Positions 10,562 to 14,498 of a stretch of 48,757 bases of DNA are shown here, piece by piece. A program made the position numbers and the translations under genes. Source of the stretch: Escherichia phage PhiR70_1. Location: the sequence record PV340577. One strand, 5' to 3'. Every line of letters begins with the position of its first letter. Within the stretch, counting starts at the first letter, position 1. The notes under the pieces were generated by a model. The model was not told where the DNA came from. It worked only from the letters and a program-made list of their open reading frames with translations, and did not search any database.

Positions 10562-10894
10562 ATGAACCCTTATATTTATCTTGGTGGTGCAATACTTGCA
10601 GAGGTCATTGGTACAACCTTAATGAAGTTTTCAGAAGGTTTTACACGGTTATGGCCATCTGTTGGTACAATTATTTGTTATTGTGCATCATTCTGGTTAT
10701 TAGCTCAGACGCTGGCTTATATTCCTACAGGGATTGCTTATGCTATCTGGTCAGGAGTCGGTATTGTCCTGATTAGTTTACTGTCATGGGGATTTTTCGG
10801 CCAACGGCTGGACCTGCCAGCCATTATAGGCATGATGTTGATTTGTGCCGGTGTGTTGGTTATTAATTTATTGTCACGAAGCACACCACATTAA
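10562..10894 (+). CDS. emrE: Small multidrug resistance efflux transporter EmrE
   Basis: MNPYIYLGGAILAEVIGTTLMKFSEGFTRLWPSVGTIICYCASFWLLAQTLAYIPTGIAYAIWSGVG... matches E. coli EmrE (DLP12 cargo); true ATG at 10562. Confidence 0.9.
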   Translation: MNPYIYLGGAILAEVIGTTLMKFSEGFTRLWPSVGTIICYCASFWLLAQTLAYIPTGIAYAIWSGVGIVLISLLSWGFFGQRLDLPAIIGMMLICAGVLVINLLSRSTPH

Positions 10895-11148
10895 AATAAT
10901 TTGTTTCTAAACGACTAAAATATGGAGGCTCTTATATTTATATGAGCCTCGTTTTATGCTTTTTGTTAATGTCTTTATTTTTTATGTATTCTTTTGTGCT
11001 TTCAAGATTATGGCGTAAGAAAATTGCAATACGATTATTGTTGTATATTCAAGATAATGTGACCTTAATTGTCTTTTTAAATAAAAATTAAACAAAAATT
11101 ATATCCCACCACTAAGGTTTATAAAAGCATACGTTAGCAGGTGTCACC

Positions 11149-12675
11149 ATGAAAAAAGCCATAGCATATATGCGATTTTCATCACCAGGTCAGATGTCTG
11201 GTGACTCATTAAACCGACAGAGAAGACTTATTGCTGAATGGTTAAAGGTAAATAGTGATTATTATCTTGATACCATAACATATGAAGATTTAGGATTAAG
11301 TGCATTCAAAGGAAAGCATGCACAATCAGGAGCTTTTTCGGAATTTTTAGATGCTATAGAGCATGGTTATATATTGCCAGGAACTACATTGTTAGTTGAA
11401 AGTCTGGACAGACTTTCAAGAGAAAAAGTCGGTGAAGCGATTGAACGTCTGAAATTGATTTTGAATCACGGTATTGATGTTATAACTCTTTGCGACAATA
11501 CAGTCTATAATATTGACTCTTTGAATGAGCCATATTCATTAATAAAAGCCATACTTATAGCACAAAGGGCAAATGAAGAAAGCGAGATAAAGTCAAGTCG
11601 GGTTAAATTATCATGGAAGAAAAAACGGCAGGATGCAATGGAATCAGGTACGATTATGACGGCGTCTTGTCCGAGATGGCTCTCCTTAGATGACAAAAGA
11701 ACGGCTTTTGTTCCAGACCCCGACAGGGTGAAAACTATTGAGCTAATTTTTAAACTCAGGATGGAAAGGCGCTCATTGAATGCAATAGCCAAGTATTTAA
11801 ATGATCATGCTGTAAAGAATTTCTCAGGAAAAGAAAGTGCATGGGGACCTTCTGTAATTGAAAAATTATTAGCGAATAAAGCTCTGATAGGTATATGCGT
11901 ACCTTCATATCGTGCAAGAGGGAAAGGGATAAGTGAAATCGCTGGCTATTATCCCAGAGTTATATCAGATGATTTGTTTTACGCTGTACAGGAAATTCGG
12001 TTGGCACCTTTTGGTATTAGCAATAGTAGCAAGAATCCTATGCTAATAAATCTACTTCGAACAGTTATGAAGTGTGAGGCTTGTGGTAATACCATGATTG
12101 TTCATGCGGTATCTGGAAGTTTGCATGGCTATTATGTTTGTCCGATGAGAAGATTACATCGATGTGACAGGCCATCAATAAAAAGAGATTTGGTTGATTA
12201 TAATATCATTAATGAATTGCTTTTTAATTGTAGCAAAATTCAACCAGTTGAAAACAAGAAAGATGCTAATGAAACTTTAGAGTTAAAAATTATTGAGCTT
12301 CAGATGAAAATTAATAATTTAATCGTTGCATTGTCTGTCGCGCCTGAAGTTACCGCTATAGCAGAGAAAATAAGACTATTAGATAAGGAATTACGAAGGG
12401 CTTCGGTATCATTGAAAACTTTGAAGAGTAAAGGTGTAAATTCATTCAGTGATTTTTATGCTATTGACTTAACCAGTAAAAATGGACGAGAGTTATGCCG
12501 TACACTTGCCTATAAAACATTCGAAAAAATCATAATTAATACGGATAATAAAACCTGTGATATCTATTTTATGAATGGCATTGTTTTTAAACACTATCCT
12601 TTAATGAAAGTAATATCCGCCCAGCAGGCGATAAGTGCTCTCAAATATATGGTTGATGGTGAGATTTATTTCTAA
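11149..12675 (+). CDS. ybcK: Large serine recombinase (DLP12 YbcK-like)
   Basis: 508 aa; N-terminal resolvase-type catalytic domain (AYMRFSSPGQ...R), Cys-rich zinc-ribbon region (CEACGN...CPMRRLHRC), C-terminal coiled coil; AT-rich. Confidence 0.8.
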   Translation: MKKAIAYMRFSSPGQMSGDSLNRQRRLIAEWLKVNSDYYLDTITYEDLGLSAFKGKHAQSGAFSEFLDAIEHGYILPGTTLLVESLDRLSREKVGEAIERLKLILNHGIDVITLCDNTVYNIDSLNEPYSLIKAILIAQRANEESEIKSSRVKLSWKKKRQDAMESGTIMTASCPRWLSLDDKRTAFVPDPDRVKTIELIFKLRMERRSLNAIAKYLNDHAVKNFSGKESAWGPSVIEKLLANKALIGICVPSYRARGKGISEIAGYYPRVISDDLFYAVQEIRLAPFGISNSSKNPMLINLLRTVMKCEACGNTMIVHAVSGSLHGYYVCPMRRLHRCDRPSIKRDLVDYNIINELLFNCSKIQPVENKKDANETLELKIIELQMKINNLIVALSVAPEVTAIAEKIRLLDKELRRASVSLKTLKSKGVNSFSDFYAIDLTSKNGRELCRTLAYKTFEKIIINTDNKTCDIYFMNGIVFKHYPLMKVISAQQAISALKYMVDGEIYF

Positions 12676-13139
12676 ATAATGATCTCGGATTTTAAGTTAT
12701 GCTATGGTGATAAAGTGCAAGACAGAATTAATTATCTTTGACGAAACTTAATGGGTAATTACTTTGTTTGCTCCCACAAGCGAGTTTTGTACGGCTGTAT
12801 TGGGGTAGTAAATGAGCTATACAATCTTAATCATTTGTTAGGTGAGAACTCTTGGTCGCAGATTCAAATACTGAAAATACGTGACAAATTATTATGAGCA
12901 AAATGGTGTATGTCACGTATTTTGAATGGTAGGTTAAAAAATAACACCGACTTTCGTAGGTATTACTAATAATAAAGCAGAGTTTTTAGATAGTATCAAT
13001 GTGCTTTGTGTATATTGTGGCAAATAATTGGGTTGGGGGTACAATTGTGATTGCTTTTGCATAAACATTGCGCCTTTATGCATAATGAGATAAAGGAATA
13101 TCAAATAAAATAACGATAGGTCATAACAAAGAGGTTTTT

Positions 13140-13691
13140 ATGAAAACACTTATCGTTTCAACTGTATTGGCATTCATAACATTTTCTGCGCAGGCTGCAG
13201 CATTTCAGGTCACTAGTAATGAAATAAAAACAGGAGAGCAACTTACAACGTCTCATGTCTTTTCTGGATTTGGGTGTGAAGGTGGTAATACATCGCCCTC
13301 ATTAACCTGGTCTGGTGTTCCTGAAGGTACCAAAAGCTTTGCCGTAACTGTATATGATCCAGATGCACCTACAGGCAGTGGTTGGTGGCATTGGACTGTT
13401 GTTAATATTCCAGCAACAATAACATATTTGCCCGTTGATGCAGGGAGACGTGATGGAACAAAACTGCCGACTGGTGCTGTTCAAGGCCGAAATGATTTTG
13501 GCTATGCTGGGTTTGGTGGCGCATGTCCTCCTAAAGGAGATAAACCACATCATTACCAGTTTAAAGTATGGGCTCTAAAAACTGAAAAGATTCCTGTAGA
13601 TTCTAACTCCAGCGGAGCGTTAGTTGGTTATATGCTTAATGCTAATAAAATCGCAACCGCTGAGATAACACCAGTTTATGAGATAAAGTAG
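13140..13691 (+). CDS. ybcL: Periplasmic PEBP/YbhB-family protein YbcL
   Basis: Signal peptide MKTLIVSTVLAFITFSAQA; PEBP motifs (DPDAPTGSGWWHW, HHYQFKVWAL). Confidence 0.85.
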   Translation: MKTLIVSTVLAFITFSAQAAAFQVTSNEIKTGEQLTTSHVFSGFGCEGGNTSPSLTWSGVPEGTKSFAVTVYDPDAPTGSGWWHWTVVNIPATITYLPVDAGRRDGTKLPTGAVQGRNDFGYAGFGGACPPKGDKPHHYQFKVWALKTEKIPVDSNSSGALVGYMLNANKIATAEITPVYEIK

Positions 13692-13700
13692 GGTGAGAGT

Positions 13701-14498
13701 ATGCTGGCAAGAGGTAAGACTAACTTAAAGATCGAAGAAATACGGATGCATAAACATCATGAGATTCATAGGGTTAAGCCTCTTATGCCAGCTTTGTGTC
13801 GTATCCGTCAGGGAAAGAAAGTTATCAATTGGGAGACGCATACTTTAACTGTTGATAATAATCAAATAATATTATTTCCTTGTGGTTATGAATTTTATAT
13901 TGAGAATTATCCTGAAGCAGGGCTTTATCTTGCAGAAATGCTTTACTTACCCATTGATTTAATTGAGAGTTTCCAAAAACTTTATACGGTAACTGATCAA
14001 ATACGTAACAAAACAAGTTTCTTTTTACCTCAGAATCCTGAGTTAATATATTGTTGGGAGCAACTAAAAACATCTGTTTCCCGAGGCTTCTCAACTAAAA
14101 TTCAGGAGCACTTAGCAATGGGCGTTCTACTTTCGTTAGGAGTGAATCATGTTAATCATTTACTTTTATCATATAGTAAACAATCATTGATAAGTCGTTG
14201 TTATAACCTGCTGCTATCCGAACCCGGCACAAAATGGACAGCAAACAAGGTTGCTCGATATCTCTACATTTCTGTTTCTACATTACATCGCCGTCTAGCA
14301 AGCGAGGGGGTAAGTTTCCAAAGTATACTGGACGATGTGAGGTTAAATAATGCGTTGTCTGCTATACAAACGACGGTAAAACCTATAAGCGAGATTGCCA
14401 GAGAAAATGGTTATAAGTGTCCTTCTCGTTTTACTGAAAGATTTCATAATCGTTTTAATATAACACCAAGAGAGATAAGAAAAGCTTCCAGAGAGTAA
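13701..14498 (+). CDS. ybcM: AraC-family transcriptional regulator YbcM
   Basis: 265 aa; C-terminal AraC-type HTH ([16 protein letters not shown]...[24 protein letters not shown]). Confidence 0.8.

Follow-up and report, generated by a model that had tools for sequence, protein, structure and literature searches.

The emrE–ybcM block of Escherichia phage PhiR70_1, an accessory gene set at the ren–nin junction of a lambdoid prophage

Prophage DLP12 of Escherichia coli K-12 carries a set of accessory genes in the order renD-emrE-ylcJ-ybcK-ybcL-ybcM-ylcH-ybcN...quuD-nmpC. Here we analyze the corresponding genes of Escherichia phage PhiR70_1, present in a stretch of 48,757 nt of sequence record PV340577, hereafter the window; all window coordinates count from its first letter. 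The block under study (10562-14498) consists of five uninterrupted open reading frames (ORFs) on the + strand, emrE, ylcJ, ybcK, ybcL and ybcM, according to the ORF listing, and the gene order is identical to that of DLP12. Four of these genes had been named in an initial annotation, made from the sequence alone, which placed an efflux pump, a large serine recombinase, a periplasmic protein and an AraC regulator in this block. All four are present as intact + strand ORFs in agreement with Pfam, while ylcJ had been overlooked.

Comparison with DLP12 shows that the window has an intact ren, which is split by the insertion sequence (IS) IS3 in K-12, and an intact porin gene, which is split by IS5 in K-12, and that it keeps its replication, lysis, head and tail genes. 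The window prophage has a lambda-type integrase and lies at the lambda att site, whereas DLP12 has intD and lies at argU. The initially proposed resemblance of the block to DLP12 was borne out by alignment, with 99.6% identity over 5020 nt (10281-15300), the same gene order, and zero or one residue of difference in each protein. The block is also 100% identical to its counterpart in E. coli 442/2, where it is located in a DLP12-type prophage at argU. Of 5426 complete E. coli genomes, 671 contain it at a query coverage of at least 80%. The block is thus an already known set, annotated as DLP12 accessory genes in K-12 and hundreds of genomes.

The full block is further present, at 99.8% identity, in the genomes of phages PhiR34_1 (host K-12 MG1655) and PhiR68_2, which shows that such cargo does ride on infectious lambdoid phages, as had been suggested for a lambda-type prophage. 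The slot backbone of these two phages, and of Perceval (genus Bievrevirus), 4A7 and Lambda_4C10, is as in the window, and the latter three carry ren-emrE-ybcK. Compared with DLP12-type phages, the window additionally contains IS4 and a frameshifted tape-measure gene.

Other lambdoid phages carry comparable genes, termed morons, examples being bor and lom of lambda and the slot cargo of PhiR30_1, PhiR5_1 and HK639. Like these, the block has genes of deviant guanine-plus-cytosine (GC) content at a recurrent mosaic joint; lytic growth does not depend on morons, the lysogen benefits from them, and we liken the block to them. It is located between backbone genes and is absent from related phages. 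With respect to promoters and terminators of its own, a scan was at chance level, the hairpins after emrE and ybcK were significant, and a ybcLM promoter with a YbcM site is known in K-12 from the literature. The block differs from other morons in its unusual size (4 kb, five genes) and in the inclusion of a recombinase.

We propose, with a probability of roughly three in four, that the block is a composite moron-type accessory set in a hypervariable ren–nin slot of a DLP12-type lambdoid phage, assembled by ordinary mosaic recombination. Within it, emrE, ylcJ, ybcK and an alternative ren tail would form the constant core, to which an exchangeable distal module is attached, ybcL-ybcM in this case. 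K-12 work and sequence conservation lead us to expect that its genes serve the lysogen rather than phage growth.

A cargo slot with constant borders and variable contents

The block follows O and P and precedes Q (16188-16586), all on one strand, which agrees with its initial placement in the delayed-early operon. The GC content is 0.30-0.44 over 10400-14600, compared with ~0.51-0.55 in the flanks and ~0.52 in the adjoining replication and nin genes. Alignment of ren from the window (10192-10494, + strand), lambda, PhiR30_1 and PhiR5_1 places the left joint at ~10458/10459, 36 nt before the ren stop codon, all four genes diverging at the same point after ...CGGGTATTG. The last ~36 nt of ren (10459-10494) are therefore part of the variable cargo unit. 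The right joint is at ~14527-14530, with homology to Perceval, PhiR30_1, PhiR5_1, IdasGreatGrand and HK639 resuming at 14528-14530; homology to phage 82 begins already at 14482. The exchangeable unit thus spans ~10459-14527, and the initially reported span of 10562-14498 was correct in location and slightly too narrow.

The same slot has different contents in other phages. PhiR30_1 contains an acyltransferase gene and a lipoprotein gene, PhiR5_1 a set that includes Rha, and HK639 other genes. Lambda contains only a short spacer with a canonical terminator hairpin, which we take to be tR2. The shared borders and different contents indicate that the ren–nin junction is a general cargo slot.

Variation was also found within the ybcK-bearing phages. 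Perceval, 4A7, Lambda_4C10, 1W, 3W, D2 and PhiR47_2 are homologous to the window from P to 12716, 41 nt past the ybcK stop codon, and beyond this point carry a reverse-strand alpha/beta hydrolase gene up to the nin leader. Four variants beyond the Perceval type exist in genomes; complete genomes add two versions, one with a P22AR fragment and a 260-aa gene (E9, AW1.7, UPEC-245U), and one with nothing at this position (O157:H7). Among IMG/VR sequences, 80 loci had a ybcK of the E. coli type, and their left part, running from the ren tail through emrE and ylcJ to ybcK, was invariant. The distal module was ybcL-ybcM in 30 of these loci, the P22AR fragment alone in 24, the P22AR fragment with the hydrolase in 9, the P22AR fragment with the 260-aa gene in 9, and nothing in 6. 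ybcL-ybcM is thus one of at least five alternative distal modules. A joint to ybcK common to all distal modules, as expected of site-specific cassette exchange, was not found among these variants, which diverge at different nucleotides. Such variable divergence points are indicative of ordinary lambdoid mosaicism rather than of a single site-specific junction. The initial description of one inserted block is accordingly replaced by that of a mosaic, in which a constant emrE-ylcJ-ybcK core is joined to an exchangeable ybcL-ybcM module.

These results bear on the idea that the whole 4-kb block is one mobile element, put into ren through site-specific recombination by YbcK. The presence of a recombinase gene in a low-GC block with sharp borders, the left one inside ren, is in its favor. 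However, the break point in ren is the same in cargo-free lambda and in phages whose cargo has no recombinase, the right half exists in at least five different forms, and neither a displaced ren tail nor inverted or direct terminal repeats were found. We regard this idea as largely refuted and highly improbable. A search of the block for a ren tail displaced into it, such as that of lambda, PhiR30_1 or PhiR5_1, gave only chance matches of 9-13 nt.

Putative host-directed genes and their chromosomal counterpart at fliE-yedK

The largest class of matches in complete E. coli genomes (2311 of 5426, ~40%, in the 90-95% identity band) does not lie in a prophage. It is a phage-free chromosomal island with the order fliE / emrE-ybcL-ybcM-porin / yedK, which has the four genes in the same order and orientation as the window, at ~92% nucleotide identity to the block. 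The island was initially seen in a sequence deposited as a plasmid, and strain ABU 83972 confirmed it as chromosomal; copies examined include L009 6001-9858 and L111 5001-8504, both at the E. coli fliE-yedK locus. A search for the block on plasmids gave three matches. Two were to records of 1.3 and 4.9 Mb, which resemble chromosomal DNA deposited under the label of plasmids. In the remaining one (CP088875; 393 kb, non-mobilizable), flagellar and yed genes surround the fliE-yedK island, so that this record likewise looks chromosomal.

BLAST shows the island to be collinear with window 10486-10901, 12985-14715 and 16488-18195. It lacks ylcJ-ybcK (exactly 10902-12984) and the region from ybcN through most of Q. 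Several phage remnants are retained: the spacer between ren and emrE; the promoter and hairpin of the nin leader; ylcH together with the start codon of ybcN; and the last ~100 nt of Q. The nin-leader and Q remnants indicate that the island is a decayed prophage and not the chromosomal source of the phage genes. The porin gene of the window (nmpC/OmpD-type, 16775-17857, − strand, downstream of Q) encodes an intact protein of 360 aa.

Capture of emrE-ybcL-ybcM by a phage from the fliE-yedK locus would be the reverse scenario. The island is the commonest form (~2300 genomes) and contains no phage structural genes, which speaks for it. Nevertheless, it keeps pieces of the phage backbone in phage order, including the porin gene that is Q-proximal in the phage, and the synonymous divergence (dS) of 0.18-0.36 between island and phage copies argues against recent capture. 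We consider such a capture very unlikely.

Between island and phage copies, the ratio of nonsynonymous to synonymous substitution rates (dN/dS) was 0.011 for emrE, 0.10 for ybcL and 0.13 for ybcM (a range of 0.01-0.13), and 0.054 for the porin gene. Such low values indicate that the genes are kept by selection. The retention of just emrE, ybcL, ybcM and the porin gene after prophage decay further argues that these genes benefit the host. We propose that a decayed prophage, stripped to these four genes, would have become fixed by fliE in ~40% of E. coli genomes because of their value. The locus by fliE, which carries the ybcL of uropathogenic E. coli (UPEC) type, would then be a domesticated phage remnant and a clear case of moron retention after prophage decay.

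EmrE is an efflux pump for cationic toxic compounds. The emrE gene of the block (10562-10894, + strand) encodes a small multidrug resistance transporter of 110 aa, which matches the four-TM SMR profile PF00893 over residues 3-94 (E 2e-35), contains the essential, membrane-embedded Glu14 in MNPYIYLGGAILAEV, and belongs to PHROG 1395, the QacE moron family. It differs from K-12 EmrE by a single conservative substitution, I100V. Given this near-identity to the experimentally characterized K-12 protein, EmrE of the block would be expected to catalyze drug/proton antiport, export cationic toxic compounds and confer tolerance to them.

The ybcL gene (13140-13691, + strand) encodes a PEBP/Raf-kinase-inhibitor-like protein (PF01161, E 7e-42) with an N-terminal signal peptide. 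It matches the solved YbcL structure 1FUX (E 2e-112) in an alignment beginning at residue 20, following a hydrophobic N-terminus that ends in AQA, and would be a secreted periplasmic protein. Residue 99 of the precursor, corresponding to residue 78 of the mature protein, is V in the window and T in the island, including that of ABU 83972. Residue 78 (V or T) is said, in work of Lau et al. from 2012, to be the difference between K-12 and UPEC YbcL. UPEC YbcL suppresses neutrophil migration and the K-12 type does not, one residue being decisive (PMC4810123). An effect at the level of the host is thus documented for YbcL in the literature, but the protein encoded here is of the K-12 type (V78) and not the UPEC variant (T78).

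The ybcM gene (13701-14498, + strand) encodes an AraC-family transcription regulator of 265 aa, identical in sequence to K-12 YbcM, with a C-terminal double helix-turn-helix DNA-binding domain (HTH_18, residues 185-261; PF12833, E 1e-16) and a weak ExsA_N-type N-terminal domain. In K-12, YbcM has about a dozen binding sites in all, with a peak upstream of ybcLM by chromatin immunoprecipitation with exonuclease digestion (ChIP-exo), and deletion of ybcM lowers survival of H2O2 8-fold (PMC8464067), which provides a second instance of an effect at the level of the host. YbcM of the block would be an autoregulated activator of ybcLM and of a few host genes tied to oxidative stress. The region upstream of ybcL (12985-13139, + strand) is kept in the island, where homology resumes at 12985, and is the probable location of the ybcLM promoter and of the site for autoregulation by YbcM. 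Promoter-like hexamers are present at 12987-13016 and 13017-13045, in a scan that overall was not above chance.

The presence of emrE, ybcL and ybcM on infectious lambdoid phages means that the associated traits can spread by lysogeny. A contrary view is that the block genes are decaying, silent passengers of no consequence. It could draw on the silencing of ybcK by Rho in K-12 (PMC4150792), on the promoter scan, and on the fact that the host prophage has started to decay. Against this, the ORFs are intact and none is a pseudogene, the proteins are at most one residue from those of K-12, dN/dS is 0.01-0.2 over a dS of up to 0.36, and deletion phenotypes are reported in K-12 for ybcM (PMC8464067) and ybcK (PMC7181518). 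It is most improbable that the genes are inconsequential.

The YbcK recombinase and its relatives

The ybcK gene (11149-12675, + strand) encodes a protein of 508 aa with Resolvase (PF00239), Recombinase (PF07508) and Zn_ribbon_recom (PF13408) domains, assigned to an integrase family in PHROGs. The catalytic serine is S11 in the motif YMRFSSPGQ. Across 19 family members (41-61% identity, ~505-522 aa), R9, S11, Q15, D87, R88, R91 and the four zinc-ribbon Cys residues are invariant. YbcK shares the serine catalytic, recombinase, zinc ribbon and coiled-coil parts with large serine recombinases (Bxb1, PhiC31, A118/LI, TP901-1; TnpX, CcrAB), and differs from them by an extra C-terminal alpha/beta domain (444-507). 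Neither YbcK by itself nor the profile of its family gave a meaningful match in sequence searches of the PDB, HMMER being too insensitive for the solved large serine recombinases. A fold search with an AlphaFold (AF2) model did succeed. The model, with a mean predicted local distance difference test score (pLDDT) of 78.7 and coiled-coil helices at 367-397 and 401-427, matched full-length serine integrases including Bxb1 and PhiC31 (E 1e-14 to 3e-19; 9dxd, 9iu2, 9tep). Among E. coli phage copies, dN/dS of ybcK is 0.07-0.20. YbcK is, judged from its sequence, a catalytically intact large serine recombinase. It is not the integrase of the prophage, because a lambda-type tyrosine integrase is present at 75-1145.

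In K-12, a terminator in the ybcK leader that depends on Rho and NusG is reported to restrict transcription of the gene (PMC4150792). Expression of YbcK would normally be held down in this way, and not every gene of the block need therefore be expressed in the lysogen. Sabinene tolerance changes when ybcK is overexpressed or deleted (PMC7181518).

The only candidate for a cognate att site was a 50-bp element between ybcK and ybcL (12874-12923), with perfect 13-nt inverted terminal arms AAAATACGTGACA ... TGTCACGTATTTT detected by an inverted-repeat search; a partner site was not found. The element is missing from the other ybcK-bearing variants, occurring only in the ybcL-ybcM block type, and folds like a terminator (RNA fold z −3.84). 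Possible roles are termination of ybcK transcription and protein binding. Its TGTCACG motif recurs at the 3' end of emrE (10872-10878). The surrounding spacer (12717-12984, + strand), delimited by BLAST break points and by the survey of the 80 IMG/VR loci, is specific to the ybcL-ybcM block type, and is missing from Perceval-type phages and from the chromosomal island.

Relatives of YbcK in other genera were found in three kinds of places: in the same early-right slot of other lambdoid prophages (Pantoea, Atlantibacter); at the far prophage end after the tail-fibre genes (Yersinia, Ewingella, Erwinia, and Atlantibacter by the transfer-messenger RNA (tmRNA) gene); and in plasmid-like DNA. A YlcJ-like ORF was not found upstream of the ybcK homologs in these genera. 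Among 23 relative loci, 7 of 15 direct-repeat pairs span the recombinase gene. In five of the loci, from other Enterobacterales, the gene lies in a 3-10 kb stretch between diverged direct repeats (68-84% identity, 230-380 bp). The repeats that could be identified are partial copies of a split phage or mobile-element gene, encoding DUF1367 (L099, 9623-9851 and 12609-12831 of that locus), lambda P (L032, 9281-9657 and 12216-12592), DUF2280 (L033, 9273-9519 and 16149-16394) or AAA_25 (L023, 8203-8478 and 18490-18765). The fifth pair is at 9013-9332 and 12970-13291 of L101. In L099, the truncated and full DUF1367 copies are identical at 58 of 59 residues, and their DNA is only 82.5% identical, a pattern that an integrating element carrying a surrogate gene end would leave.

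In an Atlantibacter locus (L010, 8933-11432), the YbcK homolog is the last gene of a Mu-like-tailed prophage. This gene and the tmRNA gene are convergent, with 540 bp up to the 3' end of the latter, and the position is one usually held by an integrase gene. The homolog shares 77% nucleotide identity with the gene of L099, and the similarity is limited to the coding region and the 68 nt preceding its start codon. These findings suggest that the YbcK family includes integrases of small cassettes nested in prophages.

We therefore considered whether ylcJ-ybcK is, or once was, a small integrative cassette moved by YbcK and nested within the phage, perhaps carrying the distal module as cargo. The ybcK-less island, in which emrE directly adjoins ybcL, would then represent the empty site. 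Such a history accords with a recombinase that is catalytically intact and under purifying selection; with the cassettes and repeat pairs described above, in which the recombinases are 49-59% identical to YbcK; with the occurrence of the recombinase gene and a leader of ~70 nt alone in the quite different prophage of L010; and with the absence of exactly 10902-12984 from the island. In contrast, no terminal or flanking repeat and no duplicated piece of ren, P or another target gene was found in the window or in any E. coli variant, for the whole block or for ylcJ-ybcK alone. In the 80 IMG/VR loci and in all genome classes, ybcK always follows the ren tail, emrE and ylcJ, with no sign of recent mobility. 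The distal modules diverge at differing points after ybcK, and the island junctions show only AT-rich microhomology. We rate a nested cassette at this locus as possible but doubtful.

A broader and equally tentative extension is that the YbcK family drives 3-10 kb 'phage-in-phage' cassettes, which target conserved genes of temperate phages and plasmids (lambda P, DUF1367, DUF2280, AAA_25) and bring a diverged copy of the gene end together with cargo. The emrE/ylcJ/ybcK core would then be such a cassette, mobile or recently fixed, with the distal modules as its exchangeable cargo. If this were true, YbcK cassettes would represent a route for the entry of accessory genes into phage genomes, and would supply new serine integrases with phage-gene targets. 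Existing annotation is exceeded only by what was seen of the chromosomal remnant and of the YbcK family; the block itself, though functional in appearance, matters little.

The interpretation as a composite moron-type set assembled by mosaic recombination is preferred, and several observations weigh against it. Purifying selection on a recombinase with no identified site is odd for a mere passenger. The junctions between island and window, with their AT-rich microhomology, are compatible both with loss of ylcJ-ybcK from the island and with its insertion in a phage ancestor. YbcL of the block is the V78 variant, reported to be inactive in the neutrophil assay. Finally, consensus scans of the block were at chance level, with 17 promoter-like sites compared with 16.3 expected, and 4 terminator-like sites compared with 3.6 expected. 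With scans at chance, we infer separate transcription units in the block only from the K-12 work and the two hairpins.

Flanking features and the carrier prophage

The second gene of the block, ylcJ (10942-11091, + strand), encodes a small hydrophobic protein of 49 aa (Pfam PF23688 YlcJ, E 2e-35), and is annotated in K-12 and 442/2. Its start codon is overlapped by a terminator-like hairpin after emrE (10925-10964, + strand), read from the sequence as GGAGGCTC...GAGCCTC followed by a U-rich tract. The fold of this hairpin has z −3.15, and none of 200 shuffles was as good. A further 13-nt inverted repeat, found between ren and emrE by an inverted-repeat search (10512-10546, + strand), forms a hairpin with no U tract. 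Its fold (−13.4 kcal/mol, z −1.27) is not significant; the sequence also persists in the fliE-yedK island.

On its right, the cargo slot is bounded by the nin-leader (14531-14591, + strand), with a TTGATT-N17-CATAAT promoter match in the consensus scan, an operator-like palindrome TTGATT..AATCAA, and a hairpin GTCACCGGAG..CTCCGGTGAC whose RNA fold has z −3.59. This module is common to Perceval, PhiR30_1, PhiR5_1, IdasGreatGrand and HK639. In the phage 82 record X92588, −35 and −10 signals and a regulator site are annotated in the piece matching window 14482-14700. The nin-leader may be a regulated internal promoter or an antitermination-related element. Its hairpin is GC-rich and has no U tract, and the module is kept in otherwise different lambdoid phages and even in the chromosomal island.

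The first backbone genes right of the block are ylcH and ybcN (14615-15168, + strand), identified by ORF and by the K-12 and 442/2 annotation, with starts at 14615 and 14713, respectively. YbcN is NinB-like, with a weak Pfam NinB match. An Rfam scan of 9500-16800 (E ≤ 1) gave no match, a scan of the window for tRNA and tmRNA genes found none, and a PADLOC scan of the five block proteins gave no match to a defence system.

The window begins with the lambda attP P' arm (1-80) and ends with the att core ACTTTTTTATACTAA at 48739-48753, and its integrase is 98% identical to one adjoining ybhC in other strains. These att ends and the integrase indicate that the window is exactly one whole prophage at the lambda att site. 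The prophage had been described as apparently complete, which holds for its gene complement and is qualified by an IS4 insertion and a frameshifted tape-measure gene.

A complete copy of IS4 (1426 bp, 28851-30276) occupies the intergenic space that separates the major capsid gene from FI. The element encodes a transposase of 442 aa (28935-30263) with Nterm_IS4 and DDE_Tnp_1 domains, and is flanked by a 12-bp target duplication when compared with the 442/2 prophage. The tape-measure gene H (33651-36211) is split into ORFs of 90 and 747 aa by a 1-nt deletion at 33904/33905, where the window has GCAGG-GGGCA and 442/2 has GCAGGCGGGCA, so that the frame is lost after ~85 codons. The frameshift is either a real inactivating change or a sequencing error; unless it is an error, this copy of the prophage is probably not infectious.

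Between the kil-like region and cI, 5239-6761 (− strand) contains three genes, encoding an unknown protein of 136 aa, a protein of 167 aa annotated as SecB-like in 442/2 (weak PADLOC match PD-T4-9_C), and an MqsA-family antitoxin-like protein of 203 aa. These genes may constitute a toxin-antitoxin or defence module in the immunity region. The right-end cargo (46989-48514) contains a gene for an AraC-family regulator of 250 aa in the position of appY in DLP12, followed by fragments of an IS3-family transposase just inside attR.

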